From Squalus acanthias (lineage: Eukaryota), in the NCBI GenBank assembly GCA_030390025.1, contig CM059432.1, positions 87,422,001 through 87,486,000 of the forward strand: a DNA stretch of 64,000 nucleotides, written 5' to 3'. Under the pieces are notes generated by a model that made no database searches, was not told the DNA's origin, and worked only from the letters and a program-made list of their open reading frames with translations. Below, one piece after another: positions 5,001 to 61,485 of the stretch; position 1 is the first letter of the stretch, and each line of letters starts with the position of its first letter. The translations under genes and the position numbers were made by a program.

Positions 5001-5370
5001 TTGTTACGAATGCTACGTGCATTCAGATAGAGAACTTTCAAATATGTTTTGTGACACTTAGTTCCTGCTTTTGCCCTTTTTATTACTTTACCTTTTACTC
5101 CATACCTTCTGCCCCTTCCTGACACACTCTGGTTTTAAATTTCCCCACTGCTACCTAAGTCTATGACCTTCTCTGTTGTCATTTTTATTATTTGTTCTCT
5201 AGGAACCTCCCCCCCACTAGTTAGTTTAAAGCCCTCTCTACAGCTCTAGTTATATGACCCGCCAAGGCTGTAGTCCCAGCACTGGCCAAGTGAAGCCCGT
5301 CCCAAAGGAACAGCTCCCTCCTGCCCCAGTACTGGTGCCAGTGTCCTAGGAAGCAAAACCCATTTCTCCC
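2012..5370 (-). mobile_element. CR1 LINE, 5'-truncated (end of ORF1, frameshifted ORF2, 3' UTR); inverted near-identical sister of 24173-28281
   Basis: ORFs 4208-5125 (APE) and 2246-3784 (RT; GVPQGSVLGP, FADD); GAACATAA tail at 2012-2035; reverse complement matches 24173-28281 except for the MITE present only in the latter. Confidence 0.95.
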
Positions 5371-5449
5371 AAAAGAGAAGACTTAGAGGAGTCCTGATAG
5401 AGGTCTTTAAAATTATGAATAGGTTTGACAGGGTAGATGTGGAGAAAAG
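5371..5449 (+). mobile_element. CR1 RT C-terminal fragment (host element G, 3' half)
   Basis: Encodes KRRLRGVLIEVFKIMNRFDRVDVE; collinear with the CR1 at 62813-62888. Confidence 0.85.
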
Positions 5450-7551: not shown

Positions 7552-9201
7552 GGCCAGTATTTGCCGATGCCTACGGGTGTGTACGGGCTGTGTACACACC
7601 CGTAGGGCCATCGGAAATGCCGGTTTCAAGCATGCGAAAAGCATGTGCTGAAAACCGGCATTTCCGATCTGTCAAAATGCTCTTGAGAGATCGCACGCCT
7701 GCCCTGGAGAAGGGCCTCTGCGGGGGGAGAGTTCCGCTTTCTGCAGAACCTCCGCCCGCAGAAAACCCTTAGAAATCTTACGCCTGGTAAAAGCAGGCGT
7801 AAGGCCTGCTTTTACCAGCATAAGAGTTGAAAAAAAGTTAAAAAAAAAAAAATGTTCTCACTCATTTATAATTTTAAAATACTTTTAAAAAAGGTAAGTT
7901 TATTTTTAGCCCCGTAAAAAACTTTAATTATTTTTTTCAAAAAATTAATCTTTTGTTTAAAATATTTAATTTATTGTTATTTTAACTCATTTTAAAAACG
8001 TGATTTAAAAAAAAATATTTAGGGGTAAAAATTCAGTTGGTTGCGCCTCCCGTTAGCGCCTTAAGAGGGCGCTAATGGGGCGCAAAGCCGCTGACGCCCG
8101 GGCGCAGCGATGTTTGCGCCGCTCGGGAACTTAACTTGACATTGTGCGGCGGCGCTAAAACTTACCGCTGCGACCACCTGCGCGCGCAGATTGTGACGTC
8201 ATTCCATGGTGCAACGCCCTTGTGGTGCCCCGGAGCGGAAATTGAGTGGCGCCCCCTGCCTTACCGCCTGGCGCATCCAACGACCAGAAGACTGGAACGC
8301 TATCAATCGCTGTGGGGCTGGGGGGGGCGCTATTTAAAGGGGGCCTCTTCCTGCCTTTTATTGTTGGTGGCATTTTTGAACTACGCATTCTGAGAGAGAG
8401 AGGGAGAGACTTCTGGAGAGATTCAACGTTGTGTGAAGGAGTTTTGGGTACTGAGCAGCACTTTGCAGGTTCATTTTGATTTGCCATTCCTTGTATCGAT
8501 TTAGCAGAGACTGTGGGAGCTGCACTCTGAGCTCTTTGCCTGGTACTCTCCATTGTTCTTTCCAGCACATTTGATGTGCAAGTCTCTCCAGGCCGAGATT
8601 CAAGGCTGCAATGAACAGGATGTGGATGGAAAGCAAGATTAACCATCCCCTTTAAGAACTGGCCCGTGCCATTGTGTGTGTGTTCCATTGCTGACTGACA
8701 TTACATGAGCTTCGCCAGCGCTCTGAGTTAGCGCCTCACTCCTTGGCCTTTGCGCCTTAAGACAGGTGTGCAGCGCCTGCTTTAGCGCTCCACTCACCTC
8801 CCGGGGCGGTAAAAGTGAAGTTTCCAGTCAGTGCCGATAATTAGCGCCAAGCGCTAATATTTGCGTTCAGACAATATTTGCGCCCCAAATGGGGCGCGAC
8901 CTAATTTTATTCCTTAATGTTTTAGTGTGTTTTTGGGGTGATCTCCATTCATATATTTGACAGGTCTGTCAAAAGTATGAAGGGAGATTCCCTTCTCCTA
9001 TTGGCTGGCCTGGCCCACGTGATCCCAGGGACGCTTGCGAACTGCATGCGCCCCTGGGATACCTGGGCCCTGCGCATTCCAACTTTGGAGAGGCCCAGGA
9101 GCGGAAGCGTTCGGACCTCGGGAGCCCTCAGGTAAGTTCGTAGATTTTTTTCCGATAGGAGGCATCCGCACGCAGGAAGCCTCCATCAGAAATTACGGGC
9201 C
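7552..9201 (+). mobile_element. Non-autonomous Harbinger-type element (family M1) containing a nested M2 copy
   Basis: TIRs GGCCAGTATTTGCCGATG / CATCAGAAATTACGGGCC; AAT TSD at 7549-7551 and 9202-9204; second copy at 60802-61485. Confidence 0.88.
8022..8913 (-). mobile_element. Non-autonomous Harbinger element (family M2) sharing both ends with the autonomous element 43610-47773
   Basis: Starts GGGGTAAAAATTCAG; TTA TSD; removing it restores TATTTAATGTTTT as in the empty M1 copy near 61212; inverted copy of 48036-48931. Confidence 0.93.
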
Positions 9202-9752
9202 AATAGTTTAAACAAAAAATTTAACTTTAGCTAGTCAGGTCTTGCATGCCTCGTGAAACCCGCCAGCCAATACAAGGCGAGGACTGCTGGATCCTGGAGG
9301 TAAGTGCCTTTACACTTAGCTCCTGGATACAGCGTCCCTGCCTAACCCACCCGCCGCCCCACCCCCACCCCCGATCGGAGACCCCCCACGAGGCCTCCGA
9401 TTCCCCCCCCACACGGCCACCAATTCCCCCAACCCGCCAGGCCTCTGATCCCCCCCCTCGGCCACCAATTCCACCCTCCCCCCCCATAGGAGTATGTCAG
9501 CAGCATGCCTTAAGCTTTATTCAAATAAATTTGCTTCTTTCTCTGAGCACATTGCTAGCGATTTCTGCAGACATTCCCCGGCGGAGCCTCCGGAGAAACC
9601 GCCATAAACAGCTAAAAAATGGCCATTTACACCATTCTCCAGGGTTTTTGCCAAAGTTACAGAAGTTTGGCACTGGTGGAGGTGCCGACCTACGGGGTGA
9701 GACATTAACCTGGGGGCCCCACTCGTCTGTAAAAGTACTCAAAAACACATTA

Positions 9753-10186: not shown

Positions 10187-10442
10187 AGATCGGAAGAACC
10201 CTGTGGAAACTCTCCCCTATGGTGTTGTATATTTGTCCCATCTCTGACCACTAGATGGCTCTGGACAATGTTAACACATCATTACACATCCCAGCAGGAC
10301 TCAATGGCCTAGAAATTAGTTTAGGCCAGCTTTGAAACACCAAATGGGCACAGGAAACTATCCCTGCACCCAAAAACAGAGGCCCAAGAAACACGAGAAA
10401 TGGGTCCTCAGGCCTCAACTACATAACTGCAGCGAGTTGCCA

Positions 10443-12290
10443 TACATAGAAACATAAAAGATAGGAGCAGGAGTAGGCCATTCAGCCCCTCGAGCCTGCT
10501 CCGCCATTCAATGAGATCATGGCTGATCATCCAAATTCAGTACCCTGTCCCTGCCTTCTCCCCATATCCCTTGATCCCTTTAGCTTTAAGAAATATATCT
10601 AACTCCTTCTTGAATATATTTAATGAATTGGCCTTTACTGCCCTCTGTGGTAGAGAATTCCATAGGTTCACCACTCTCTTGGTGAAGAAATTCCTCCTCA
10701 TCTCAGTCCTAAATCCTTATCCTTAGACTGTGACGCCTGGTTCTGGACTCCCCGGCCATCGGGAACATCCTTCCTGCATCTAGTCTGTCTAGTCCTGTCA
10801 GAATTTTATAAGTTTCAATGAGATCCCCTCTCATTCTTCTAAACTCCAGTGAGTATAAGCCCAATCGACCCAATCTCTCCTCATACGTCATTCCTGCCAT
10901 CCCAGGTATCAGCCTGGTGAATCTTCGCTGCACTCCCTCCATGGCAAGAACATCCTTCCTCAGATAAGGCGAGCAAAACTGCACACAATACTCAAGATGT
11001 GGTCTCACCAAGGCCCTGTACAACTGCAGCAAGACATCCTTGTTCCTGTACTCGAACCCTTTCACTACGAAGGCCAACATACCATTTGCCTTCTTAACCG
11101 CCTGCTGCACCTGCATGCTTACCTTCAGCGACTGGTGCACAAGGACACCCAGGTCTCGTTGCACTTCCCCTTCTCCCAATCTATTGCCATTCAGATAATA
11201 ATCTGCCTTCCTGTTTTTGACACCAAAGTGGATAACCTCGCATTTATCCACATTATATTGCATCTGCCACGCTTCTGCCCAATCACCCAACCTGTCCAAA
11301 TCATCCTGGAGTTTCTCGGCATCCTCCTCACGGCACACACGCCCACCCAGCTTTGTGTCGTCTGCAAACTTGGAGATATTACATCTCGTTCCCTTGTCTA
11401 GATCATTAATATATATTGGCCCAGAAATTAAAGACTGAGTGTTGACGCGGGGGTAAGGCTTCCCCGCGATCTCTCACTCCGCGTTGGCTTTTTCAGTTCC
11501 AGCTCGCACGAACTTCATGTTCTGGACAGCTGCTGTGCAGTGCTTGCGTATCCCACCGGCGTAGTGAATTCGTGCGAGCTGTGGGATCACGTGACTCAGT
11601 TAGAGCCAATGGCAGCACACCATCTTCCATTCATAAGTTTCACATAAGTGCTGTGAAACCTATGAATCTTACACACCCCCAAAATAACAGCTAAACCTCA
11701 ATTAAATTAAAAAAAAAACCATCACATTAATAAAATAAGTATAGTTAAATAAATTAACCATTTTAAATAAAAAATTAAATTTTTGAAAAAATTTTAAATC
11801 TTTTAAAAAGTTATAAAAATAAACTTACCTGTCTTTAAAGTCTCTAAAAAAGATATACCTGTTAAAAAAAATTCAAAATAATACTTAATTCACTACTTAC
11901 CTTGTTAAAAGTGGGTCTTACTCCTCCTTTTTTCATTTCTAAAATCTTCAGTACTTACCTGCGCATCCAAACCACTAAGTGCACAGCGTGCGCGCAGCCT
12001 GTAGCGCGCACACGGTGCACCGAGGACCCGCCCCCTTTTCCATTCACCAAGTGCCGGTTTTCAGCGCATGCGCAGTGCATGCAGAAAACCGGCAATTGGA
12101 GAAAGAATACGCGAGAGTACGCAGTGCGTACTCTCGCGTAGTAAGACTAATTTTTGGGCCATTGTCAATAGCTGGGGTCCTAGGACCGATCCCTGCGGTA
12201 CCCCACTAGTCACTGCCTGCCACTCGGAAAAAGACCCGTTTATTCCAACTCTTTGCTTCCTGTCTGCCAACCAGTTCTCTATCCAAGTCA
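10443..12290 (-). mobile_element. 5'-truncated CR1 interrupted by an M3 MITE
   Basis: RT C-terminal ORF 10709-11338; GVPQGSVLGP near 12175-12205; ACATAGAA tail at 10443-10460; same family as 15996-18668. Confidence 0.92.
11418..12160 (-). mobile_element. Non-autonomous Harbinger-type element (family M3)
   Basis: TIRs GGCCCAGAAATTA / TAATTTTTGGGCC; ATT TSD; splits the CR1 RT at LLTI|IYIND; inverted copy of 26638-27376. Confidence 0.93.
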
Positions 12291-12929
12291 ATGCCGGTGC
12301 CTATCGCGCCTCCACAGACAGCTTGCCCAACTGAAGAATCCAATTTTGGGCCATCTGCCTTGCTGGCAGCAGCCTTCAAATAAGTCCCGGGGTGGGGGAG
12401 TTGGAGGAAAGCTGGAGAGGGCCAATCGGGGTCAACTGCAACCAACAGGAGTGCTATGGAGCCGGGAGAAAGCACTACATCCACTTGTATGACCATAAAA
12501 CAGGCACAATGAGGTACAATTTCTACCCCAATAACTTCAGGAGAACTAAAAAGAAAATTGAAAAGAAACTTTACTTTTGTTCTGTCTTTTTCCCATACAA
12601 ATCAGTCTTTTCTCCCTATTATCTTTTCTTTCATATTCTCCAGTTTTACTTTATTTTACATTATTTCTGATCGATATGCAATGTCTTAACTTTCATTTTA
12701 CATTTATTCTTAATTACATCATGTGAATATTAAATGTACCTGTTGCCCTGTGCCTGTCGTGTGCCAGCATCCATTCTGAAGCTGGGACATACATGGATAA
12801 AATCTTCCTTTATTAAACCAACTGGGTCAGACTTATGATTTTGTGGGAGTCAATGTTGGCCATTCTGACAGAACGTGTCACAGCCTAGGAAGCTGAAAGC
12901 ATCAAAATAAGTATTCCCAACAGCAAACG

Positions 12930-14278
12930 ACTACAGATCTGGACACGCACTCTGAAAATCTCCACCGGAGAACGGTCCAAGCAGCAGAAGCGTTACTTGA
13001 GCACGCCGATTGTTTGTTCGATCATGTTTCTCATAGCGACATGGCTCTTGTTGTAGATTCCTGACAGGACTCATGAGCCATGGCCGGAGGGGATATCTTT
13101 TGTCGCCCAGTAGCCATCCTGTAACTAAACGGCCTGTTGCAATAAAGGTGGCACCGAGGACTGGCACAGGATGGAAGAGTCATTACTGTTGGCAGGATAC
13201 CGGGCACAGACCTGCATGATGCGCTGCTTTTAGTTGCAAACCTGCTGGACATTGATAAAGATGACAAGTTGGTGATAGGGAGCATGCAAGGCAATGTGGC
13301 TGCAGTCAATGGCACCTTGTACCCTGGTGAAGCCTGTCATGCAGGTGAAGCCTAGTGCTCTTTCAACCTGCTTCGCTCTGTCGATGGGGAACGAGATGTA
13401 GGTGTTCCTCCTGGTGTAGAGAGCCTCACTGACTTCCATGATACAGCGGTGGACAGCGAACTGATATGTCGCTGATATCACCTGTTGCAGCCTAAAAGGA
13501 GCCCCTGGTATAGAGGTTAAGGGCTGCGATGACCTTGACAGCCACAGGCAGTGCTGTCCATGCCCTGTTACAAGGTTCAAGTTGTGGCTACAGCAGGTGG
13601 CATAGCTCGGTGACAGCCGCCTTAGTAAAGCGAAGGCACTTCATACACTGCTCCTCAGTAAAGTTAATGTAGGAGAACTGCTCTCTGAATACCCGCTGTG
13701 GGAATGGCCTCCTGCACAATGGCCCCCTCCTCCTCCCTCTTATGGCAGCTGTTCCTGCTCTAGGCTGTCTTCCTTGCTGCTCCTCCACATCCTCCAGCCC
13801 GAAGACAACACTCTGAGACCGCCCATGACTGCAGTCAAACTATTTATGAGATAGCGAACAACAGCGCATCATCAGCAAAATTTTGTTCTTAGCAAACAAA
13901 CAGAACTTTCTAGAATCAAAAACCAACCCAAGAAACATCCAGAAGTTAACCAGTAGCCTCAAATGACAAACCAGCAACGAACCTGTAAGTTCTGCATAAT
14001 TTCTTTAAAAGGCACTGGCGAGTTCAGCACGTGGCCAGTCAGGCACTGGGGCATACCAAAATCGGGCAAGGGTCCTGAAAGAAGCACAGGACCCTAATTT
14101 AAATAACATATTCAGCATTTTTAATACTTCTGGTGTGTGCTCCTGATGCCAACAGAGAAGCCTGATCCAATGCGCCGGACAGCGCATTTCTGGCTGGAAA
14201 TGTGTGCAAGATTTCTGCCTGCCATTTTAGAGGCTTAGGCACCCGTTAAGCACCCAAAATACGTCAAATTTCTAGGCC
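12930..14278 (-). pseudogene. Harbinger transposase pseudogene with element terminus
   Basis: Fragments RVFREQFSY..CLRFTKAAVTELCHLL, VQGAIDCSHIAL, GWLLGDKRYPLRPWLMSP; frameshifts; TIR-like AATTTCTAGGCC at 14267-14278. Confidence 0.88.
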
Positions 14279-23368: not shown

Positions 23369-24322
23369 ATGGAGCAGGTGATGTGTTACTGTTGCGAGAT
23401 GTGGGAGCCGGTGGACCCCATTGAGGCTCACGGTGATTACATCTGTGACAAGTATCTGCTGCTGCAGGAACTCCAGCTCCGTGTTGATGAGCTGGAGTCT
23501 GAGCTTCAGACACTGCGACACATCAGGGAGGGGGAGAAGTACCTGGACTCTGTGTTTCAGGAGGTGGTCACACCTATGAAGTTAATTAATTCAGATGTAG
23601 CCCATGGTCAGGGACAGGACGGTGTGACTACGAGTGAGGCAGGTACGGGGATCCAGGAGGTAGTGTTGGAGGAGCCGCAGCCCTTGCTCTTGTCCAACAG
23701 GTTCGAGGCTCTTACTCCCTGTGGGGACAGGAGCAGGGACTGCAGGGAGGATGAGCAACCTGGCCACAGCACCGTGGAACGGGGGGCCATTCAAGAGGGG
23801 GGAGTAAATAGAAATGTTGTAGTGGTAGGGGATAGTATTATTAGGGGGATAGATAGAGTTCTCTGCAGCCGAGAACGAGAGTCCTGTAGGCTGTGTTGCC
23901 TGCCCGGTGCCAGGGTTAAGGACATCTCCTCTGGGCTGGAAAGAAACTTGCAGTGGGAGGGGGTGGATCCAGTTGTCGTGGTCCATGTTGGTACAAACGA
24001 CGTAGATAGGACAAGGAAGCCGGTTCTGTTAAAGGAGTATGAGCAGCTAGGGGTCAAATTAAAAAACAGAACCTCAAGGGTAATAATCTCTGGAGTATTA
24101 CCTGAGCCACGAGCGAATTTGGCTAGGACAAATAAAATTAGAGAGTTAAATGAGTGGCTCAAAGACTGGTGTGGGAGAAATGGGTTTTGCTTCCTGGGAC
24201 ACTGGCACCAGTACTGGGGCAGGAGGGAGCTGTTCCGTTGGGACGGGCTTCACTTGGCCAGTGCTGGGACTAGAGTCCTGGCGGATCATATAACTAGGGC
24301 TGTAGAGAGGGCTTTAAACTAA
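23369..24322 (+). CDS. CR1 ORF1 protein (N-terminal Cys motif/leucine zipper plus SGNH/GDSL esterase domain)
   Basis: Open 317-aa frame; CxxC...CxxY, LQELQLRVDELESEL, VVGDS, HVGTND, DGLH. Confidence 0.9.
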   Translation: MEQVMCYCCEMWEPVDPIEAHGDYICDKYLLLQELQLRVDELESELQTLRHIREGEKYLDSVFQEVVTPMKLINSDVAHGQGQDGVTTSEAGTGIQEVVLEEPQPLLLSNRFEALTPCGDRSRDCREDEQPGHSTVERGAIQEGGVNRNVVVVGDSIIRGIDRVLCSRERESCRLCCLPGARVKDISSGLERNLQWEGVDPVVVVHVGTNDVDRTRKPVLLKEYEQLGVKLKNRTSRVIISGVLPEPRANLARTNKIRELNEWLKDWCGRNGFCFLGHWHQYWGRRELFRWDGLHLASAGTRVLADHITRAVERALN

Positions 24323-24417
24323 CTAGTGGGGGGGAGGTTCCTAGAGAACAAATAATAAAAATGACAACAGAGAAGGTCATAGACTTAGGTAGCAGTGGGG
24401 AAATTTAAAACCAGAGT

Positions 24418-27400
24418 GTGTCAGGAAGGGGCAGAAGGTATGGAGTAAAAAGTAAAGTAATAAAAAGGGCAAAAGCAGGAACTAAGTGTCACAAAACATA
24501 TTTGAAAGTTCTCTATCTGAATGCACGTAGCATTCGTAACAAAATAGACGAGTTAATGGCACAAATAACTACATATGGGTATGATCTTGTGGCCATTACA
24601 GAAACATGGCTGCAGGGTGACAATGCCTGGGAATTAAACATACCAGGTTATTTAACGATCAAGAAGGACAGGCAGGAAGGAAGGGGAGGAGGGGTGGCTA
24701 TGTTAATAAAGGAAGGAATCACTGTAATACAGAGAAATGATATTGGGTCAAAAGATCAGGATAATGAAACAGTTTGGGTGGAGATAAGGAATAATAAGGG
24801 GGAAAAAACACTAGTGGACGTAGTCTATAGGCCTCCGAACAGTTGCAACTCTATTGGACGGAGTATCAATCAGGAAATAGTTGTGGCTTGTAATAAGGGA
24901 ACATCTATAATTATGGGGGATTTTAACTATCATATTAATTGGACAAATCAAATTGGGCAGGGCTGCCTTGAGGATGAGTTCATTGAGTGTATTAGGGATG
25001 GGTTTCTTGAGCAGTATGTAACTGAACCGACCAGGGGGCAAGCAACCTTAGATCTGGTTCTGTGTAACGAGACAGGATTAATTAAAAATGTCCTAGTAAA
25101 GGATCCCCTTGGAATGAGTGACCATAACATGGTTGAATTCCATATTCAATTAGAGGGTGAGAAGGTTGGATCTCAAACAAGCGTGCTAAGCTTGAATAAA
25201 GGTGACTATGAAGGTATGCGAGCGGAATTGAGTAGAGTGGATTGGGAAAATAGATTAAAGGGTAAGACGACACATGATCAGTGGTGTACATTTAAAGAGT
25301 TATTTTACAACTTCCAAAAAAATATATTCCACTGAGAAGAAAAGGGTGTAAAAGAAAAGACAGTCATCCGTGGCTAAGTAAAGAAATTAAGGATAGTATT
25401 CGACTAAAAACAAGGGCCTATAAGGTAGCTAAATCTAGTGGGAGAATAGAGGATTGGGAAAACTTTAAAAGACAGCAAAAATAACAAAAAGATTGATTAA
25501 GAAAGGGAAGATAGATTATGAAAGTAAATTAGCAAAAAATATAAAAACAGATAGAGTTTTTATAGTTATATAAAAAGAAAAAGGGTGGCTAAAGTAAATG
25601 TTGGTCCCTTAGAGGATGAGACCGGGAAATTAATTGTGGGAAATATGGAGATGGCAAATACACTGAATGAATATTTTGTATCAGTCTTTACAGTAGAGGA
25701 CACTAAGAATATCCCAACACTGGACAAACAGGGGGCTATGGGGGGGAGGAGCTAAACACGATCAAAATCACTAAGGAAGTGGTACTCGGTAAAATAATGG
25801 GACTCAAGGCGGATAAATCACCTGGACCTGATGGCTTACATCCTAGGGTCTTGAGGGAAGTGGCGGTAGGGATTGTGGATGCATTGGTAATAATTTTCCA
25901 AAACTCCCTGGACTCAGCAAAGATCCCGGCAGACTGCAAAACTGCTAATGTAACACCCTTATTTAAAAAGGGCAGTAGACAGAAGGCTGGAAACTATAGA
26001 CAGGTTAGCCTAACATCTGTGGCAGGTAAAATTTTGGAGTCCATTATTAAGGAGACAGTAACGGGACATTTGGATAATCATAATTTAATAGGATAAAGTC
26101 AGCATGGTTTTATGAAGGGGAAGTCATGTTTGACAAATTTGCTGGAGTTCTTTGAGGAAGTAACATACAGGGTGGATAAAGGGAAACCAGTGGATGTGGT
26201 GTATTTAGACTTCCAAAAGGCATTTGACAAGGTGCCACACAAAAGATTATTGCTTAAGATAAAAAATCACGGGATTGGGGGTAATATTCTGGCATGGATA
26301 GAGGATTGGCTATCTAACAGAAGGCAGAGAGTTGGGATAAATGGTTCACTCTCAGACTGGCAATCAGTAACTAGTGGTGTTCCGCAGGGGTCAGTGCTGG
26401 GTCCCCAACTCTTTACAATCTATATTAACGATTTGGAGGAGGGGACCGAGTGTAACATATCAAAGTTTGCAGATGATACTAAGATGGGAGGGAAAGTAGT
26501 GAGTGAGGAGGACATAAAAAATCTGCAAGAGGACATAGACAGGCTAAGTAAGTGGGCAGAGATTTGGCAGATGGAATACAATACTGGAAAGTGTGAGGTT
26601 ATGCACTTTGGCAGGAAAAATAGTAGAGCAAGTTATTGGCCCAAAAATTAGTGCCGCTACGCGAGAGTACGCACTGCGTACTCGCGTATTCTGTCTCCAA
26701 TTGTCGGTTTTCTGCATGCACTGCACATGCGCTGAAAACCGGCACTTGGTGAATGGAAAAAGGGGCGGGTCCTAGGTGAACCGCGTGCGCGCTACAGGCT
26801 GCGCGCACGCAGTGCACTTAGTGGTTTCAACGCGCAGGTAAGTACGGAAGATACTACACATAAAAAAAGGAGGAGTAAGACCCACTTTTAACAAGGTAAG
26901 TAGTGAATTAAGTATTATTTTGAATTTTTTTTAACAGGTATATCTTTTTTAGAGACTTTAAAGACAGGTAAGTTTATTTTTATAACTTTTTAAAAGATTT
27001 TAAATTTTTTCAAAAATTTAATTTTTTATTTAAAATGGTTAATTTATTTAACTATACTTATTTTATTAATGTGATGGTTTTTTTAAATTTAATTGAGGTT
27101 TAGCGGTTCTTTTGGGGGGCTATAGTATTCATAGCTTTCACAGCACTTATGTGAAAGTTATGAATGGAAGATGGTGTGCTGCCATTGGCTCTAACTGAGT
27201 CACGTGATCCCACAGCTCGCATGAATTAACTACGCCTGTGGGATACGCAAGCCCAGCACAGCAGCTGTCCAGAACATCAAGTTCGTGCGAGCTGGAACTG
27301 AAAAAGCCAACGCGCAGTGAGAGATCGCGGGGAGGCCTTACCCTCGCACGAAGGCTTCCTCACGATTTTTTGGGCCATTATCTTAATGGCAAGAAACTGG

Positions 27401-28047
27401 AAAGTACAGAAGTACAAAGGGATCTGGGGGTCCTGGTGCACGAAACTCAAAAGGTTAGTATGCAGGTGCAGCAAGTGATTAAGAAGGCCAATGGAATGTT
27501 GGCTTTCATTGCTAGGGGAATAGAATATAAAAATAGGGAGGTATTGCTTCAGTTGTACAAGGTATTGGTGAGACCGCACCTGGAATACTGCATACAGTTT
27601 TGGTGTCCATACTTCAGAAAAGACATACTTGCTCTCGAGTCAGTAAAAAGAAGGTTCACTCGGTTAATCCCGGGGATGAGGGGATGGACATATGAGGAGA
27701 CGTTGGGTAGATTGGGACTCTACTCATTGGAGTTCAGAAGAATGAGAGGCGATCTTATTGAAACATATAAGATTGTGAAGGGGTTGGATCGGGTGGATGC
27801 GGGGGGGATGTTCCCGATGATGGGTGAAACTAGAACTAGGGGGCATAGTCTTAGAATAAGGGGCTGCTCTTTCAAAACTGAGATGAGAAGGAACTACTTC
27901 ACTCAGAGGGTGGTAGGTCCATGGAATATGCTGCCCCAAAAAGCTGTAGAAGCTACATCATTACATAAATTTAAAACAGAAATAGACAGTTTCCTAGAAG
28001 TAAAGGGAATTAAGGGTTACGGGGAGCGGGCAGGAATTTGGACATGA
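24418..28047 (+). pseudogene. CR1 ORF2 (APE plus RT) with frameshifts, a stop codon and a MITE insertion
   Basis: ORF pieces 24418-25335, 25779-26096, 26112-26637, 27377-28047. Confidence 0.93.
26638..27376 (+). mobile_element. Non-autonomous Harbinger-type element (family M3)
   Basis: TIRs GGCCCAAAAATT / ATTTTTTGGGCC; ATT TSD; empty site seen in the sister CR1 near 2908-2922. Confidence 0.95.
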
Positions 28048-28281
28048 GTCTAGGTTCGGATCGGTCATGGCCCTGTGGGTAGCGTAGCGGGCCCAGGGGC
28101 CGTGTAACCTGATCCTGCTCCTATTTCGTGTGTCCAATTCTGTTAGGTTCAGGAGATTGTTCTGTGATAGTAGATTGGCGGTTAGGATCAGATCAGCCAT
28201 GATCTTATTGAATGGCGGAGCAGGCTCGAGGGGCCAATTGGCCTACTCCTGCTCCTATTTCTTATGTTCTTATGTTCTTAT

Positions 28282-28680: not shown

Positions 28681-29544
28681 TCTTAGGTGCCCAGTCTGCA
28701 AGTTTTCTAATTTCCTGGATTTTGCATTGGGAATAACAGTGAGGCTAATAGCGCTCACCGTTATTATGGAGTAAATCGGACAACAACTTTTGGAGTACAC
28801 ACATGCGCAGTTAAACGTGGAAATCTGGAAGTTGCAGTCCAAGTTATCCTGCTCCTCCACAGGCTGCGCTATACCGATAGACTCAGCATTGAAATCAATA
28901 TAAAGGTGTGAAGTTGTGGTACGTACCCACTAGTTATCCATTAAACATGACAGAAAAAGTTAGGGCTGGTGCATTTAGGTGTAAGTGAATTTTTAACAGC
29001 GTGATAAGTCATAATTAATGCCAAACAACCCTCTGGCCCTGAAAGTTTAATTTTATGACTGTGGCGTCTCATTCCTTCAGAATTTAATTAGTGTTGAAGA
29101 TTAAAAAAAAATGTAATTAAAATAATTTTTTTATTTTAATTTTTTGGTCTGTCTCTTTTATCTTTCTCTCTTAACCCCATCTTTCTTTTCCAATATTTAT
29201 TTTGCTTTCTTTACATGATTTAAATCTAATTTATAATTCCTGGCTTATACTTCCTGGTGTAGACTCTGTGTGGCTCAGTGAGGATTCTTCAATCTGTGTT
29301 ACATGTCCTGCGCACAGATGCCACAGACCTCCTGTAGAGGCCGCTGCGCTGGATCAGCTGCCCGATGACAGCAAGTCTGCTCAAAAGCCCGCAAAAACTC
29401 TCTGGGCAGCTGTCAGCATAGTGAACAACGAGCACCGTTCCTTCGCCGCTTACTGCACATTCTGGGCCAATGTCTTCTTGTATTATGTTGCATTCTTCCT
29501 CAGTGTTAGCTAGACCATCCATTTAATTTATAAAGAGAAATATT

Positions 29545-35620: not shown

Positions 35621-38039
35621 GGCTTGAGACCAATGTTCCCACTAATTCTTTTTGTATTGAGTGGGCCACGAACTCCTTTGAGCGCGACCTTTTTGTCCGT
35701 GGGCAAGTTTTACAACTACACCTTTTACAACAACAACAACTTTTACACAACGACAGCAACAGCAACCACTTAAAAGCATATATACAGTAATGCCATATTG
35801 CCACCCCACCATCTCAAATCATGAGACAATCAGACAAACTCTTAAAAATCATGAAATCAGTTGCTTTTTCTTGATTTATAAACCTTATTAGTGGCTTTAT
35901 TTAATCTTTAGCAGGTCACAGCTCTTACAAAAGCTATATTACACATGTCTCATGTTAGAATTTGCTTTGTCAGGTGCCCCATCAACGTTAATCATCTCGG
36001 GGTAATTGTCCGATTAGGATATGCTAATATTGGAGATTAGTAGGGACAGTGGTGGAGTAAGAAGAAGCAGACGGGTCAGCAACATCCCATGTGAGGTGTT
36101 AATAGCAGATTGGCCAGAACAATGGAGGCACTGAAGCTAACACATTAACAACTATTAGCAAGGCCACATTAACTATCTGAGATTGTCCAGGTCATCTCCT
36201 GTTCCTTTGTAAATTCAGTCAAGAAACATCAGGTTAAATTGATTAGCAGTTAAAAAAATCAAGATGGCCATTATGTCAAGGTCTGGAGGTTTGGTGAGAA
36301 GGAACCTTACTTCAATATACATTCTGGCCAAAGTCTCACACATCCCATGCTACCTCAATCAGGTTAGACAGACACGATTTGCTTTCAACAAATCCGTGCT
36401 GGCTGTCCCTTATTAATCGATCTGAACTACAGGAGCAGATTTAACGTCCCATCCCAAAAACAAATAGATCGGATATAATGAAAGGAAAACACTTGATGAA
36501 CCAAATGAATTGTTCTGTTAAGTATTCTCATTAGTACACCAGACATTAGCAATAATTTTTTTCCAACATTTGTTGGGAGGTGGTGAGAAACTAAAACTGC
36601 CGTTAACGTGCACTCAGTGCTAACAGAAACCCGTATGAGACTCATGCCTCACGCCTTTCGTACCCTCAATTATCTCTTAGGTTATACCCGCACTTTTCAT
36701 TGAAGTGCGCCCAAAACCACTTTCCATGGGAGCAAAAGCGCTTGTAGAACTGCCACCTAATTTAAGATTAAAAAGTGCTTCCCTCCTCCTCCCGCCTTGG
36801 TATTGTTCGGCTTTAAACAGACACTCATTCACATCAACATTTCCAGTTCAGGACCGACTTCTTGGGTTACACATCCACAGCTCACCTTTGTCTGCATTAC
36901 ACCGCATGAATTGAAACATGAAACATAAAAAAAAGTTTGCCTGAAGAGGTTCACCAAGACACTCACTGTCTAGAGAGCAGGATAATTTTTTTTTGAAAAA
37001 GTTAACCTAAAACTAAATATATTCCAAATATAAGATAATAAAAATATAACTGTATTCACTATCCTGCCGACCGTGCACATTGAGATCCTCAACTTTCTCC
37101 GATCAATAACCGGCTCCCGCTGTGTGTTGTTCCAAAGTGTGGCCAGAGACTGCCTTCCTGTGCAGAGCATGCGAGGAGCAGGTCCAGGAAACTGAGTGGG
37201 GGCGAGCGCAGGCCTCAGCAACACTGAGTGTGCATCTCAGGCCCCGAATCAGAGCCGCCAGGCCCTGCGGACGTGTGGCGAGGGCCCCGGCACCATTAAA
37301 TCGCTGCTCCAGCACCTCCCCTATCCTACCCGCTGTTTCCTGGTTTCTTCACCCGTTTCCACTGAGTCCGACTCTGTTTCTCTCTTTTGAGAATGCACCG
37401 TGGCCCTGGGCAGCATGCGCACTGTCAGCGTGGAAATCAGCATGGTGGATAGAGCGGTTGTTGGGGCGCAGAGAATTGTGGGTCCTGCAGCCACCATTCG
37501 TCAGCAGTTGTCCGAGACAATGCTCACCGGGTTCCAGGGCTCTGTATGTTAGCAAATGCTGTTCCAATTCGGATCGGCTGTGTGAGGTCCCAAACGACTC
37601 TCCCTGTGAGGATTCCCGGGTTATTCTCTCATCGCTGTGATTTTTTCCCGCTTGTTGGGTATTGGGCCCTTCCCCTTGCTCCGGCTGCCCAGCTCACTGC
37701 ATGTCCTGTGAATTTAAGTGTGTGGGACCTTCCAGCTGGCTGCTCAACCGTGCACCTGCGCACCTTACAGGGACCATTGCTCGAGCCTGCTATCTAAAAT
37801 GACAGCCTTGCTTTAAGAAAAGGCAACCTCGCTCCAGGGTCGCTACAGCCGCACTACATTGGGCCTCCTGCTGAGTGCACAGCCTGAAGCAGCGGGTTGG
37901 TCACTCGGATGTGCGCTGCAATCATTCAAATCAGTAGACAGCACCAAAATAATGGTGTTGCCTGTGCTCTTTTTACGGGCGTGACCAAACCTCGCCCCAC
38001 GTTGGCACCGACCATTTTCTGGCCTTATCAAATGTCTAG

Positions 38040-39600: not shown

Positions 39601-40498
39601 TTGTCTGTGGGTCAACTTGGAGCTCTGTGACAACCCCTGTGCTGAACTGGAGATGGCAAAGACTGATCTCTGATTTGTGAAAGCAGGAGCATTGAGGTGT
39701 TTAATGCAGGCCCTGATGGGTGTGGACATAATGGGGCAGGTTTTCCTGTTCTTGAACCTGGTTGTATTGGATTGCCTGGTTGCAGTGCAGAAAGGAGGAT
39801 CAGGTGAGCAGGACCACACGCACACACGTAAGGGAGCCTGCCTGGTTTTTCATTTGTTAATTTAAATGGACGGTAAACTCCCTGTCGAGCTGCTCACTGG
39901 CTTTCTGTAGCTGACATTGTGGTGTATTTTCCTCCGTTCACTAATGTTAGCAATAAAGTTCATGTGTGTGTAAAGAGTTTTTTTTCTATATTAGAAAATG
40001 GAGGAAAATATCAACTGTATGAGTCCTTGCAGAAGAGCGAGCCCAGAAATGACAAGTCTTCACCAGGAAGGAAAGAAGAATCAAACTACAAATATGTATT
40101 TTATCTCTTTTAACATTTTTTATCATACCTAAGTGAGGAGGAGTATGTTAAGGATTTTATAACTAGTGCTGTTCTCATATGTGCTTGCACCAAATTTCAT
40201 GGCATTAAACCAAATGCATTAAAAAGTACACAGCGAGATTTAGCACAAGTATGTCAAGCATTGTATGGGATTGGCACCAGTTAGAAAATATACCCCATAT
40301 TCCTTATCCAATAATCTTAAAGTCAAATTCCTATTATGTATTCCCTGGTTTTGCTCTTTTAATCTAGAAGAACACGAGGACCTGCTTATCTCACATGCAT
40401 CTTCATGATAAGAAAATAGTTAGGGGAAAAATTCATCCCCTTAGCTCCTCCCGTTAGCGGCAGCAGATGGTGCTAACGGGGCGCTAGAGCATTATCGC

Positions 40499-40531
40499 CG
40501 AGGCGAGGCGAGGCGAGGCGAGGCGAGGCGA
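40499..40531. repeat. (CGAGG)n microsatellite
   Basis: About 6.5 tandem pentamers. Confidence 0.9.
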
Positions 40532-43500
40532 ATCCAGCGCCACACGCTAAATCTCACAGCCCGTAACGCTGCCAGTCGCAGTTATCGCCGGGAGCCTCAA
40601 CGCCAGGTGGATCGTGACGTCAGTGAGTGTGCAATGCTCACTGAGCGCCCGATCTGCAAAATTGATTGTCGCCACCTACCTTAGCGCCTTGAGTAAACAG
40701 CGACAGGGAGAGTTGGCGTGAAGCAGCAGGAAGTCGGTTCCAGGGACGTTATTTAAAGAGATCATCAGTAATGAGCCGCAGCTGTAGGTTAGTGGAGTTT
40801 CAGCGGTTTCTTGTCAGTTTCACATAGTCCAACAGTTCCATTCAGTAATTTCAAGGTTATTTTGTATCAGGAGTGTTGTGGCAACTAAAAAGTAGCTACA
40901 TTTATTCTCAAAAAAATCTAACTGCTACACTTGGTTACATTAATGGGGGCTATACAGGTAGTCAACCTCGCCCTCCAGGATCTACGGCAGAGGAAGCGGA
41001 AGCAGCGAGAAAGACTGGAACATGTGCCCAGAGGGAGGAGGAGGGCCATCTGGGCTGTCAACAGGAGACCTTACCCTCCGAGGGTATTCCGAGAGCACTT
41101 CTCCTATCTCCAATTAAGCGAAGAGCAGTGTATTAGAAGGCTCACTTCACCAAGGAGGTGGTCACAGAACTCTGCCACCTCCTGCAACCAGACCTCCAGC
41201 CTCAGATCAGGGTGACCACAGCTCTCCCAGTGACAGTCAAGGTCACCGTTGCCCTCAATTTCTTCGCCAGCGGATCCTTCCAGTCTGCAACAGGAGACAT
41301 AGCTAACATCTCGCAGTTTGCCGTCAACTGCTGCATCCGGGAGGTCAGAGAGGCTCTCTACAGTAGGAGAAGGGGCTACATTTCTTTCCCCATCACCAGA
41401 GAGAATCAGGACAAGCGTGCATGTGGCTTTGCCAGGATAGCGGGATTCCCCTTGGTGCAGGGCGTGATTTACTGCACCCACGTGGCTTTGCGGGCACCGC
41501 ATAGCAATCCTGAGATCTTACGTAACCACAAAGGCTACCACTCACTTCATGTGCATTTGCTGTGTGACCACAGACAGCGAATCCTCAATGTCAATGCCCG
41601 CTATCCTGGCAGCAGTGGCTGCAGCAGGGCTGGTGGAAGGCTGCTGAGTGTCCGTACGGGAGACTTCAGATGGCCTGGCAGGACGCCCTTGACCAGCTCC
41701 AGGCCTGGAAGGCCCGGCTGTAGACTGCACCACCTCAGCATGGGCGGCAGCAGTCTGGGCTGGCTAGATGACAGGCAATGACAAGGGCAATGGCGGAGTG
41801 GCAGTGGTGGGAGCAGGAATGCTGTCATCCTGAGAGAGGACAGCAGCTTCCTGCTCCACTGACCCACTGCCACTCCCCTGGCGCAGCACCTCAGCATCCC
41901 TAGCAATCTGTTGGAGCACAGATTGCTGGCCTGCTGCGACAGCATGAAAGCCCCGGTCGATGGTGGTAGACCCAGCCATGGTGGTAGCAGTCAGAGCTTG
42001 CGTGGCATCAAGCTGAGATTGCATGCGAGCAGTCTGAGATTGGAAGCCACCAACCATAGACTGCATTCAGAACTAAGACATTGCATCGCTTCTGCCTGTG
42101 CTGCAATAGAAGCTGCCAGATCGCCCATCACACGCAGCACTAGGTCTGGGTTGCCAGTCTCTCTGGGAGTCCACCATCCTTTGCAGACTGGAAATGATGG
42201 GCTCCATGGTGTGCACAGAGCCTTGTGAAATGTTGGAGGCGGACTCCTCCACACTCATTGCCATTGCACCTATCATCTCGGTGTGCATGCCCATCACCCT
42301 TCTTCTAAAGCCTCCCCATCGAGGTCCTCATCTGAGTCCTGTGCCGCAGAACTCGCGCGCGAACGCACCCTCCAGGGAGCTGGCCCCCGAGCTACCCTTT
42401 CCCCCTGGCCTTGCTGCAGCCCACTCGTCCCCGGTGCCTCACCCTGTGCAGATCCCACTACTATACTAGCCTCTAAAAAATGCGTAGTGCCAGTATCTGA
42501 GCTGGTGCCTGCGGGTGAGACATGCAGTGACGCGGTGTGTTCTTCCTCCTCCGCTTCTCGCGCCTCGCTCTCAACGGTGCCCTCAAGGACAGGCTGCTCA
42601 GGTGCTTGCTCATCATCTGAAAGTTTAAAGGCACAAGAGTCGGGTTAAGGAGAGGGGAGGGGGGCAGGAAGGGAGAAATGCATGCATACAGCATGATTAG
42701 CTGGAAAGTGCGAATCGCTTGTGGGGTGAGGGGGAAGTGGGATGTAAGAAGAAGGAGTAGGGATGAACATACCGTTGTTGTCCCCAATGGGGTCAACGTC
42801 GCTGGTGGCCACGGCGCCCACCACCTGGTGCCCAATAATCTGCAGAACTCTATTCTCCAGCGCAGACAGTGGTTGGGTGTTGGCTTGTCCCCTGCCTGTG
42901 CGTTCCTGCTCCCTCTTGTTGTGAGCCACCTTGGCCTGCAAGAGAAAGGAAAGTGTGTGAGTGAGTGTGGAGCAATGTGTTTGGGTGATGTGCCTGTCAT
43001 AATTGAATAGCTGTCATTGTGTGCAAAGTGTGAGATGTGGGTATGAGATTGTTGGTGAGTGAGTGCTGGGGATGTGGTGCTCTGGGCAGTGTGTGAAGAT
43101 TGTGGTAGAGATGGTGGTATGTAGCATTTGTTGAAGCCTTCACTCACCCTAACCACCCGAGTGAGGTCATTAAATTTCTTCCTGCACTGTGTGTGGGTCC
43201 TGGGGACCACAGTGCTGCCCGAGATGTGCTGCGCTTGCTCCTTCCATATGGTTCGGAAGACTTGCGGCGAGGTCCTCCTGCCAGTTGCCGGGTAGAGCAC
43301 CGCCCTCCGTCCCTCCACAGCGAACACCAAAGCCTCCAAAGCTTGATTGCAGAATCTGCGAGTTCTCTCCCTGGGGTGTGGATCTGCCATGAGTACAGCT
43401 GCTTGAGTCATCCGGCTCCTTCTACTTGCCCTGCTTCTGCTTGCTGAGGCTGCTGCACAGCCAGCAATGCTGAGAATGAGGTTACAGCAGCATCAATAAA

Positions 43501-43968
43501 CCTCCCCTTTAAATACTGAAAAAAGCCTGTGGCAATGATGGCTTGCGATTAAACTGCACCCGATATTGGTCCATCCTTTGAATGTAACGCCAATGAGCTT
43601 GGGCTTTAAGGGGGAAAAATTAGGTCGCGCCCCATTTGGGGCGCAAATATCGTCTGGACGCAAATATTAGCGCCTGGCGCTAATTATCGGCACTGACTGG
43701 AAACTTCACTTTTACCGCCCCGGGAGGTGAGTGGAGCGCTAAATCAGGCGCTGCACACCTGTCTTAAGGCGCAAAGGCCGAGCAGTGAGGCGCTAACTCA
43801 GCGCGCGAGCGCAGCGCAGCTGCTGCCAGTTAGCGAGGGAACACAGACACACTGGCGCTGGCCAGTTCTTAAAGCGGGGGGGGCCAACTTGCTCCCCAGC
43901 CACACCCTGCTCATTGCAGCCTTGAATCTCGGCCTGGAGAGACCTGTGAATCCATTTTGCTGCCAAGG

Positions 43969-45788
43969 ATGGAGAGGGTGAGAGAACGAGCTCATCGCTT
44001 CACCGAGCGGGCCTTGGATGCTCTGGTTGGCGCGGTGGAGCGCAGAAGATGTATACTCTTCCCTGAGAGTGGCAGGAGGCCTTTGCCACGCGAGTTCAGA
44101 AGAGTGCGGAGGGAGGTGGCTCAGAGCGTCTCCTCCAGGAGCATGGTGCCCAGGACCCATACTCAATGCCGCAAAAAGTTCAACGACCTCACTCTGGTCG
44201 TCAGGGTGAGTGGCTTTTTCTCAATACCTCTCCATCCCTCCATCTCAACCTCACTCTATGGCCAGAGGGTCTTAAAACCCCAATGCACAACACTCATCCA
44301 ACACCTATGGCCCTTTCATGAAACACACACACACATTCCACACTTTGCATACAGTAAGGGCTATTCACCTATGGGAGGCACATCAGGCAAGACCATGGCT
44401 GCATACAGTAAGGGCTATTCACCTATGGGAGGCACATCAGGCAAGACCATGGCTGTATATTTACTCAGATGCTGTCCTTTTTCTTACAGGCCAAGCTGGC
44501 GCATAATCGGAGACAGCAGCAACGGACAGGTGGAGGGCGGCCTCAGCTGCAACCCCTCAGCGATCTTGAGGAGTGCGTCCACAGGATTGTGGCAAGCCGG
44601 GTGATCGGTCCCGTCGCCACTGGAGACGCCGACCCCGTTCTGGACAGCAATGGTAAGGTCATCACCTTTTTGTCCTCTGTCCTTCCACTTGTCCCTCACA
44701 ACACCAGCCTTTGACACTTTCAATCCAACTTGCTAACTCGCTGCACTTATTCCTCCCTTACTGCCACCCTGTCCTCACGCTAAAGCCACTCTTGTACCTC
44801 CCTGCTTTCAGATGGTGATTCACCAGCTGAGGAGACGGGCCCTGAAGCTGCCACTGGGAGTGATGCTGCAGCTGAGGAGGAAGAGGAAGCCGGAGCATCA
44901 GTGCCAGCCTCTCCCGAGGAAGCCCATGCCCACACTGGGAACACGCCTTCCCTGGAGGGGAGCAGGGGGGAAGGGTCTGATGAGGGTGAAGCTCCAGGAC
45001 CCAGCGGGCTGCAGCAACGCCATGGGGGTAGGGAAGAACGGGGGCCTTCTCCCCAGAGGGAGAGTATGCCAGACACTCCTACTGCAATGGACGCAGAGGA
45101 GGAGCGGCTGATCGCAGAAATGAACACCCAGGCGGTGGGCATGCACACTGAGCTCATGGGTGCAGTGGGAAGGGTGCCCGAATGCATTGAGTCACTGGCA
45201 AGGAGTGTGGAGCACTTCGCTGTAGCACAGGCGGATGCCACACTAACGCTTAGTGCTGCAATTCAGTCACTGGCTGCCGTGATCCCATCTCTGACTGCTC
45301 TCATGCAGACTCAGATTGAGGCCACGCGAGCACAGACTGCTGCCAACCTCGATGGTTCGTTCACATGTCCCTGGGGCTGTCACCGCGCCGCAGCAGGCCA
45401 GCAATCTGTTCTCCAGCAGATTGCTTCGGATGCTGAAGTGCTGCCCCATGGGAGTGCCAGTGTGTCGGGCGAGCAGGGAGTTGCTGTCCTCTCTCACGAT
45501 GACAGCATTCCTGCTGCCAACACTGTCACTTCTCCACTGCACTTGCCACCGCCTGTAGGACAGACTGCTGCCGCCCATGCAGAGTTGGTGCAGTCTGCAG
45601 CCGGGCCCTCCAGGCCCAGAACTGGTCGAGGCCGTCCTTCAGGGGCATCTGCAGTGTCAGGGTCTGACGAGCAGCAGCCTTCCACCAGCCTTGCTGCAGC
45701 CACTGAGGTCCCATTACGGAGGAGCAGTAGGGTTAGAAGGGGGGAAGTGCGCAAGGGAAGGAGATCACCCTCGAAGGGCAAAAAGTAG
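43969..45788 (+). CDS. Harbinger Myb/SANT-like DNA-binding protein; exons 43969-44205, 44490-44652, 44812-45788 (458 aa)
   Basis: GT-AG introns in phase 0 and 1 join into a stop-free frame; RFTERALDALV...TQCRKKFNDL, RTGGG motif, basic C-terminus. Confidence 0.88.
44346..44453. repeat. 54-bp tandem duplication in Myb intron 1
   Basis: TGCATACAGTAAGGGC...AAGACCATGGC twice. Confidence 0.9.
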
Positions 45789-46100
45789 GAGGTGTGACAA
45801 AATGCTGGTCATTTTTTTATTAAAGGTCGAGGTTCATGGTCCAACTTTTGTTTAGTGTTTTGGACATTATCTCCAGGTTGTGAGAACCAGTTATGTTATT
45901 GACTGTTTTTTTGTGTTTATTTCTATGAGTTTGTCATGAGGAATTGACACACACAGAGTTTGTAAAATAAATAAGTTTCTGTATTCAAAATATACATGGT
46001 TGGTGGTTGGAATTATTGGTGCCTTGGCCGGCTTAGGGGTTGCGTGCTGGGTTCATTAATGTTGTTAGCAATGGCAGAAGCCATTTCCACAGCAGGGGCC

Positions 46101-47261
46101 CTAGAAGCGGCTTGCTATTAGCCGTTGACGGACGGCCCTTGCAGTTTCACCATTGTGGGCCGCCCTCCCGCCTTGGTGCTGCTGATGATCATCCTCCTCG
46201 TCCTCTTCCTCCTCTTCCTCCTCCTCCTCTGGTGGTGCTCCAAGGCCTGGTGGCATTGGCTGGGTCCTGAGGATTGCCATGTTATGCAACATGCAGCACA
46301 CGACTACGAAGTTGGATACTCGCTCAGGCGAGTACTGCAGGGCTCCTCCAGAATGGTCGAGACAGCGGAACCGTTGCTTCAGCACGCCGATTGTGCGCTC
46401 AATTATGTTCCTGGTAGCTTGATGGCTCTCATTGTACCGCAGCTCAGCAGGGGTGTTGGGCGTACGGAGCGGTGTCATCAGCCAGGTGCTCAATGCATAC
46501 CCCTTGTCCCCGAGAAGCCAACCAACTGGCTGATGCGGTGCCTCGAAAAGTTCTGCCACAGTAGTCTGGCGCAGGATAAAAGCATCGTGGCAGCTGCCAG
46601 GATAGTGGGCATTGACAGCAAGTATCAGCTGTCTGTGGTCACAGACCAACTGAACATTCAAGGAATGGAACCCCTTTCTGTTCCGGAATTCCTCGGCATT
46701 CTCATGCGGAGCACGCAAAGCCACATGCGTGCAGTCAATGGCGCCCTGCACCATGGGGAAGCCCGCTACCCTCGCAAAGCCCAGAGCGCGGTCACGCTGC
46801 TTGTCTGGGGTCATGGGGAAAGAGATGAACTCTCGTCTCCTTTTAAAGAGGGCATTTGTGACCTGCCGGATGCAGCAATGCACCGCGAACTGGGAGATAT
46901 TGGCGAGGTCCCCAGCAGCAGCTTGAAATGAGCCAGTAGTGTAAAAGTTGAGAGCCACTGTGACCTTCACTGCCACCGACAGAGACGTCCTGGACCTCAG
47001 TTGAGGCTGCAGATCTGGCTGCAGCAGGTGGCAGAGCTCAGTGACCACCTCCTTGCTGAATCGCAGCGTTCGCAAACACAGCTCCTCAGACATATGAATG
47101 TAGGAGAGCTGTTCACGATATATCCTGGGAGGGTAAGCTCTCCTGTACATACGCCTGTTGGCCCTCCTCCGTCTGGCCATCATTGCCACTCTCTCTCTGC
47201 GTCTCTGTATCCTCCGATTCAGCTGGAGCAGGACGACGCCCCCAATCAGTGCAGCCCCCAT
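46101..47261 (-). CDS. Harbinger (HARBI1-like) DDE transposase, 386 aa from the first ATG
   Basis: Open frame with GAIDCTH, NRKGFHSLNVQ, PGSCHD, LLGDKGY, RNIIERTIGVLKQRFRCL, CCMLHN. Confidence 0.95.
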   Translation of the reverse strand: MGAALIGGVVLLQLNRRIQRRRERVAMMARRRRANRRMYRRAYPPRIYREQLSYIHMSEELCLRTLRFSKEVVTELCHLLQPDLQPQLRSRTSLSVAVKVTVALNFYTTGSFQAAAGDLANISQFAVHCCIRQVTNALFKRRREFISFPMTPDKQRDRALGFARVAGFPMVQGAIDCTHVALRAPHENAEEFRNRKGFHSLNVQLVCDHRQLILAVNAHYPGSCHDAFILRQTTVAELFEAPHQPVGWLLGDKGYALSTWLMTPLRTPNTPAELRYNESHQATRNIIERTIGVLKQRFRCLDHSGGALQYSPERVSNFVVVCCMLHNMAILRTQPMPPGLGAPPEEEEEEEEEDEEDDHQQHQGGRAAHNGETARAVRQRLIASRF

Positions 47262-60801: not shown

Positions 60802-61485
60802 GGGCCGGATATTCCGATCCCTGCGGGTGTGTACACGCTGTGTACACACCCGTAGGTACATCGGAAATGCCGGTTTCAGGCATGCCAAGCACATGCGCTG
60901 AAAACCGGCATTTCCGATCTGTCAAGAATGCTCTTGACAGATCGGACGTCTGCCCTGGAGAAGGGCCTCTGCGGGCGGATAGTTCCGCTTTCTGGAGAAC
61001 CTCCGCCTGCAGAAAACCCTTAGAAATCTTACGCCTGGTAAAAGCAGGTGTAAGGCCTGCTTTTACCAGCGTAAGATTTGAAAAAAGTACTTTAAAAAAG
61101 GTAAGTTTATTTTTAGCCCCCGTAAAAAACTTTAATTATTACATTTTTGTTTAAAATATTTAATTTATTGTAATTTCAACTAATTTTAAAAATGTGATTT
61201 AAAAAAAAATGTATTTAATGTTTTAAAGTGTTTTTGGGGTGATCCCCATTTATATATTTGACAGGTCTATCTGTCAAGTGTATGAAGGGAGATTCCCTTC
61301 TTTGATTGGCTCCCCATGGCCCACATGGTCCCAGGGACGCTTACGAACTGCATGCACCTCTGGGATACGTGGGCCCTGCACATTTCGAGTTGGAGAGGCC
61401 CAGGAGCGGAAGTGTCCGGACCACGGGAGCCCTCAGGTAAGGGCGTAGATTTTTTCCAGATCGGAGGCCTCCGCACGCGGGTTTT
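60802..61485 (+). mobile_element. M1 MITE copy with the right TIR lost
   Basis: Homologous to 7552-8021 plus 8917-9175; splits CR1 AESL|NIFK. Confidence 0.88.

Follow-up and report, generated by a model that had tools for sequence, protein, structure and literature searches.

Tourist-like MITEs, mPing, and the short variants of Harbinger-Snek are described, in the accessible parts of the respective papers, as having short terminal inverted repeats, a 3-bp target-site duplication, and no coding capacity (PMC2836001, PMC8437027). Such 3-bp duplications are typical of PIF/Harbinger elements, and what lets some non-autonomous elements amplify is a question that has been raised for mPing (PMC2836001). 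The element designated here M3, which lies in the 64-kb stretch of Squalus acanthias DNA analyzed in this work (the window), resembles these elements in all three respects and, as with mPing and the Harbinger-Snek variants, autonomous two-gene relatives are found in the same genome, recognized here by the Pfam domains DDE_Tnp_4 and Myb_DNA-bind_5. M3 differs in being longer than the 100-500 bp of MITEs and in having a conserved internal splice donor and promoter-like motifs, features that the available text of these sources does not describe.

M3 and its homologs in the window

M3 is a non-coding, non-autonomous Harbinger-type element of 739 bp (26638-27376) that is inserted in a CR1 LINE copy (24172-28281), in a window rich in CR1-type LINEs and Harbinger transposons. 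Its ends, its second copy, and the two copies of the M1 family are as follows (D4 is the splice donor of M3 at 26965).

26635..26637, plus strand: left target-site duplication ATT; a single ATT is present in the empty CR1 site at 2891-2940 (minus strand)
26638..26653, plus strand: left terminal inverted repeat, starting with GGCCC and matching the right end at 14 of 16 positions
27361..27376, minus strand: right terminal inverted repeat
27377..27379, plus strand: right target-site duplication ATT
11418-12160, minus strand: second M3 copy (M3b), with 92.7% identity, located in a different CR1 and flanked by a 3-bp duplication
7552..9201, plus strand: M1a, with a nested M2 (about 8022-8910), donors at 7894 (equivalent to D4) and 9132, and the duplication AAT
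60803..61481, plus strand: M1b, truncated at the right end, with donors at 61101 (equivalent to D4) and 61437

Target-site duplications of 3 bp flank all three complete M3 and M1 copies (ATT and ATT, AAT and AAT, AAT and AAT), and M3 itself is present in the 64-kb window in two copies. The CR1 copy at 2012-5371, which is 98-99% identical to the host copy, has an empty site; since M3 entered one member of so similar a pair at a later time, its insertion is young. No internal open reading frame of at least 150 aa was found in M3, two CR1 frames merely entering the element ends. A search of Rfam gave no match at the gathering score (the sole match had E = 0.77 and 18 bits versus a cut-off of 76), and two pattern scans of a metagenome collection gave 0 matches. 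Of the 24 public runs listed (four organism codes), 20 contain M3 whole or in part and 12 contain at least half of its words, counts that are not evidence of expression.

The initial annotation regarded M1 as otherwise dissimilar to M3 and saw in it a second family with the same donor trait. The two proved to be collinear over their whole length (z = 22 and 15 versus local shuffles; ~58% identity), so M1 cannot count as an independent second family. M1 and M3 are best explained as diverged subfamilies of one non-autonomous Harbinger lineage. Both are chains of palindromes, with double changes in 17 of 63 and 9 of 53 predicted pairs, where the structure was predicted from the same four sequences that supply the changes, and one double-sided palindrome change separates the two M3 copies (27135/27157). 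Such covarying palindromes may stem from structure, from paired binding sites, or from correction by template switching. The segment that directly follows M1a (9202-9720) is GC-rich, carries GAG/GTAAGT at 9300, and resembles M3 weakly on the minus strand, its z of 3.5 being the top value outside M1 and M3 among 36 comparisons.

Four autonomous or decayed Harbingers are present in the window (43610-47773, 54438-58742, about 40420-43609, and 12900-14278). Elements B and C encode, according to Pfam, a transposase (DDE_Tnp_4) and a Myb-like protein (Myb_DNA-bind_5) in convergent genes, and the transposase frame of element B is open over 386 aa. The MITE M2 (48036-48931 and about 8022-8910) derives from element B by a clean internal deletion that leaves both arms joined, and has an outward-facing GCG/GTAAGT ~145 nt inside its right end. 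Another MITE, M4 (about 28700-29468), has GC arms, an A/T core, a GGGCC/AAT right end, and no strong donor, and gives z = 0.1 versus M3. The search for the parent of M3 among nine segments of the four autonomous or decayed elements yielded no alignment (top z of 2.8 in 18 comparisons). The M3 type of terminus is also found on the decayed transposase-bearing element at 12900-14278, whose end, GGCCTAGAAATT, resembles the M3b end, GGCCCAGAAATT. Two more termini of the GGCC type, at 10306-10443 and 12296-12352, lie around the M3b-bearing CR1, which makes this region a nest of at least three insertions.

A same-strand cluster of splice donors

The plus strand of M3 contains CAGGTAAGT at 26835 and 26965, AAGGTAAGT at 26893, and CAGGTATAT at 26935. 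These four sites had been listed in the initial annotation as a cluster of U1-binding donors that are preserved in the second copy; their positions and strand are correct, and all four are indeed unchanged in M3b, on its minus strand. The sites at 26835, 26893, and 26965 hold up as candidate donors. The one at 26935 matches only 8/11 of the donor consensus complementary to U1 and is preceded by a T tract, so it is better viewed as an acceptor. The two donors that distinguish M3 are the following.

26835..26843, plus strand: donor D1, CAG/GTAAGT, 10/11 of the consensus; M3 only, with CAG/AAAACC at this place in M1
26893..26901, plus strand: donor D2, AAG/GTAAGT; M3 only, in the right arm of a palindrome whose M1 version is intact and whose M3 version has decayed

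D4 is common to M1 and M3 and, judging from the alignment, is shared between them by descent; another donor, located ~70 nt inside the right end, is found in M1 only. The decay of the palindrome at D2 is evident from the predicted DNA folds, which have energies of -20.5 and -25.7 kcal/mol in M1 versus -2.8 and -2.7 kcal/mol in M3, and the M1 palindrome arm homologous to D2 reads AGC/GTAAG or AGC/ATAAG.

The expectation that three MAG/GTAAGT sites on one strand would be unusual was borne out: three shuffling schemes, each with 20,000 trials, reproduced them 0 times, and the window has only one MAGGTAAGT in its 60,186 bp outside M1 and M3. When D4 is excluded, D1 and D2 together still give P = 0.0012, and the two sites of M1b give P = 0.0006 (5,000 local shuffles each). 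The motif was picked after the sequence had been seen, a point in favor of a reading without any function, in which a slowly changing, CpG-free A/T segment, self-correction of palindromes, and exchange between subfamilies would have produced both the cluster and the invariant block around D4. After a post-hoc correction that admits any non-simple 8-mer occurring three times within 140 bp, the frequency was 0.23% (global) or 0.73% (local) of 3,000 shuffles, and a corrected chance below 1% argues against that reading. It gains from the comparison of the two M3 copies, which are identical over 136 nt around D2-D4, a run that clustered differences would yield by chance with P = 0.14; similarly, the absence of changes in 36 nt has P = 0.11 at the non-CpG rate, and retention of the sites in the second copy does not by itself amount to constraint. 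It loses from the recurrence of independent sites on a single strand: AGGTAAG occupies four distinct positions across the two subfamilies, all on one strand, and is found 0 times on the other. Origin by one local tandem duplication, which the initial annotation had named as a possible refutation, finds no support, as no tandem repeat spans the donors and only 1 of 12 comparisons of donor flanks, a T-rich one, reached P < 0.05. Being above chance and lacking a tandem repeat, the cluster is regarded as real and not as a simple duplication, and a wholly functionless origin is considered improbable. Accessibility of the donors in local RNA folds was low throughout (0.003-0.043) and gave no clear signal.

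The donor trait is not general to the Harbinger MITEs of the window. M2, M4, and two M5 copies contain no donor scoring at least 9, and this absence from four other MITE copies confines the trait to one lineage. A general excess of donors in non-coding Harbinger DNA was also considered, given 10 strong donors in 10,820 bp, whereas CR1 sequence has 7 in 19,045 bp and other DNA has 1 in 23,969 bp; it was rejected because 9 of the 10 belong to M1 and M3. A donor scoring 11/11 is located at 50966 on the minus strand (within 50686-51229), followed after 13 nt by another donor and accompanied by a pyrimidine tract plus CAG/GT. It lies 264 nt in from a Harbinger terminus that is related to element C, and GC boxes and a CCAAT motif are found upstream of it, a layout that echoes M3; the homology of this 51229 remnant to element C spans only about 130 nt. 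The search for a host gene in the window returned many weak exon candidates, with none identified. The window also has a CpG-rich stretch at about 37100-37900 that may be a host promoter and, at 53397-53530 on the minus strand, an exon-like segment that ends with AAG/GTGAGC.

Promoter-like arm, intron-like core, and the D4 block

Upstream of and between the donors, M3 has the following features.

26638..26837, plus strand: GC- and CpG-rich left arm with three palindromes, GC 0.57 and CpG observed/expected 1.23; probably promoter-like
26665..26683, no strand assigned: inverted pair GAGTACGCA and TGCGTACTC close to the terminus, putative sites for Myb-like binding, with a homologous palindrome in M1
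26697-26701, 26723-26732, and 26762-26769, plus strand: putative CCAAT, NRF1-like 10-mer, and GC box, respectively
26838..26937, plus strand: predicted 100-nt intron from D1 to the acceptor at 26937
26917..26943, plus strand: T tract and CAG/GTATAT, a candidate acceptor with 10/15 pyrimidines and no competing AG; the M1 segment is absent or unrelated
26938..26967, plus strand: predicted 30-nt non-coding exon
26966..26982, both strands: invariant 17-nt block (17/17 columns in 4 copies), with D4 on plus (26965-26973) overlapping an AATAAA on minus (26973-26978)
26968..27143, plus strand: A/T-rich core that D4 and the CAG at 27143 delimit as a predicted intron of 176 nt (M1b, 164 nt), with six poly(A) hexamers on minus
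27184..27206, minus strand: E-box/AP-1-like site and CCAAT, in the same arrangement in M1

The CpG observed/expected ratio of the left arm compares with 0.26 and 0.49 in the CR1 flanks. The GC box described in the initial annotation is present in this arm at 26762-26769. The NRF1 motif described with it is a perfect NRF1-like 10-mer in the second copy only, the corresponding 10-mer of this copy (26723-26732) being GCACATGCGC. All three motifs of the left arm (CCAAT, NRF1-like, and GC box) are candidate sites for the factors after which they are named. The CACGTGACTCA and CCAAT reported for the opposite arm were found as well and correspond to TGAGTCACGTG (27196-27206, plus strand) and ATTGG (27184-27188), read on the minus strand. 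Taken together, a promoter-like region is followed by a conserved donor on the same strand, and at the sequence level this promoter-plus-donor layout fits the proposal that M3 could be a portable promoter or exon donor.

The predicted D1-to-26937 intron lacks a good branch motif where one would normally lie, and from D2 the same acceptor is only 42 nt away, too short for an ordinary vertebrate intron. In recursive splicing, a ratchet point consists of a pyrimidine tract and AG that are directly followed by a strong donor; at 26937, a pyrimidine tract and AG directly precede a donor, but the regenerated donor is only an 8/11 match. The acceptor at 27143 is invariant in 7 of 8 columns, but it lies within a covarying palindrome and has a competing AG in M3. 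Introners, in which splice sites at the element ends allow the whole insertion to be spliced out, were considered as a class for M3 and rejected, its donors being located 200-330 nt inside the left end.

The poly(A) hexamers bear on the suggestion that U1 loaded onto the donors suppresses premature polyadenylation in host introns and so makes insertions tolerable. Strong same-strand donors adjoining an A/T-rich core are what this suggestion would predict. However, the donor strand has no AATAAA or ATTAAA to mask in any of the four copies (opposite strand, 6, 8, 4, and 5), and all six hexamers of this copy lie on the minus strand, where the best donor is a 6/11 match. As the hexamers are opposite the donors, the donors cannot shield them, which is the main argument against the idea, and the lack of strong donors in the four other MITE copies of the window adds to it. 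The hexamer asymmetry is itself not significant in this M3 copy (P = 0.11 versus local shuffles) and modest in M1b (P = 0.014). U1 shielding fares poorly as an explanation, and we consider it very improbable. Evasion of HUSH through the donors was likewise weighed and is disfavored, as the protection conferred by introns is, in the available text of a review, unrelated to splicing or to the splicing machinery being recruited (PMC7619638).

Constraint was assessed in an alignment of four M1 and M3 copies from two lineages, in which 343 of the 643 columns free of gaps show no variation. The D4 block exceeds every other unbroken stretch of such columns (P = 0.00035 for at least 16 nt by column shuffling), and a 17-nt run was reached in 0 of 120 neutral simulations at similar divergence, which assume uniform rates; four copies from two lineages are also a thin sample. 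The left terminus has only 4 of 12 invariant columns and is thus less well kept than the D4 block. Conservation beyond background is thus seen for one donor, D4. Other well-kept blocks include the palindrome arm at 26731-26744, the ATTGG (5/5), and the E-box (5/6), the last two of which resemble host-factor sites.

A need at the level of DNA would be the simplest account of constraint in a non-coding transposon, and the donors may represent a repeated motif with a GTAAG core that is recognized by the Myb-like protein, the transposase, or a host factor, their likeness to splice sites being incidental. GTAAG is in excess on both strands (4+1, 5+2, 3+1, and 4+2 sites versus 0.3-1.0 expected per strand), D2 is homologous to an M1 palindrome arm in an element built as a chain of covarying palindromes, and a Harbinger Myb-like protein binds a 9-bp subterminal motif, according to the accessible part of the source (PMC9710019). 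This combination makes DNA-binding sites a serious alternative, if an unlikely one. The form preceded by AG is found on one strand only (3, 3, 2, and 2 sites versus 0), a point against this reading. The D4 block reaches past the U1-pairing positions, as a DNA motif might, but the antisense AATAAA accounts for this extension. Finally, the termini of M1 and M3 have diverged whereas D4 has not, a pattern that would fit an invariant host reader better than an element protein that co-evolves with its sites.

A predicted 5'-end module and its described counterparts

The reading to which we assign about even credence is that M3 and M1 carry an RNA-polymerase-II 5'-end module inherited from their parent element. 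This module would comprise, on one strand, a CpG-rich promoter-like arm, one or more short non-coding exons, strong donors, and an A/T-rich intron-like core; D4 would be its ancestral donor, D1 and D2 the donors specific to M3, and the right-end donor the one specific to M1. U1 would read the donors on RNA begun in the left arm, and the donors could license elongation and join the left arm to downstream exons. In mouse cells, early elongation is protected by a strong 5' splice site on the sense strand also when no splicing takes place, as described in the available text of PMC12211998, and by analogy such donors could therefore be useful to a promoter.

The proposed source of this module is the 5' untranslated region of a gene of the parent. 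The relic 5' UTR intron that the initial annotation offered as a mundane alternative is plausible and comes close to the reading preferred here. By a preset test, a predicted 5' UTR intron was found in only one of three transposase arms, where the chance rate was 12%, and the donors of these arms are weaker (7-7.5) than those of M3.

That the constraint on D4 acted solely in autonomous parents is a real, if lesser, possibility; that it acted on the non-autonomous lineage too is doubtful. M1 and M3 are collinear without a break, which suggests that they share a non-autonomous ancestor; D4 would then have been kept without a gene to serve, although two parents deleted at similar points would cancel this argument. 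It also appears quite unlikely that the non-autonomous lineage was itself selected as a miniature polymerase-II transcription unit. Under such selection, donors would have been gained repeatedly on one strand and germline transcription through the CpG-rich arm would have been sustained, which could keep the element unmethylated and accessible to the transposase. M3 would then be a DNA-level parasite tuned to a host RNA-processing checkpoint.

If the donors are merely inherited from the parent or are DNA-binding sites, the present analysis would amount to little beyond a useful annotation of a family not described before. If the proposed module is active, it would offer a cis-feature through which to test why certain non-autonomous elements are able to amplify. 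No report of a conserved donor cluster in a Harbinger MITE was found in full-text literature searches that covered a minor part of the subscription papers.

Three further described systems come close to M3 in one respect or another. Promoter-proximal 5' splice sites that block Restrictor resemble the arrangement in M3, with its sense donors near a CpG-rich promoter-like region and its antisense poly(A) signals; in the accessible part of the source, they are known from mouse host genes and not from transposons (PMC12211998). Several zebrafish DNA transposons (DNA-X-6_DR, hAT-N38_DR, and others) are, like M3, non-autonomous, and serve as testis-specific alternative promoters and first exons (PMC9341505). 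M3 differs in that the zebrafish cases are single-locus ones, for which the available text describes no family-wide conserved donor and makes no mention of Harbinger elements (PMC9341505). Along with these zebrafish elements, the closest likeness in working is to the ERVL/MaLR LTRs (MT, ORR1, MT2, and MLT), in which a promoter is followed by a positionally conserved donor that is able to splice to downstream exons (PMC5538554). As far as that source could be consulted, those are retrotransposon sequences, proven at the RNA level, with one donor and no acceptor, whereas M3 is a DNA transposon with internal donors and candidate acceptors, recognized from its sequence. Should the predicted module be active, an abundant lineage of DNA transposons would be scattering promoter-plus-first-exon cassettes in a vertebrate genome, much as the MaLR LTRs do in mammals.
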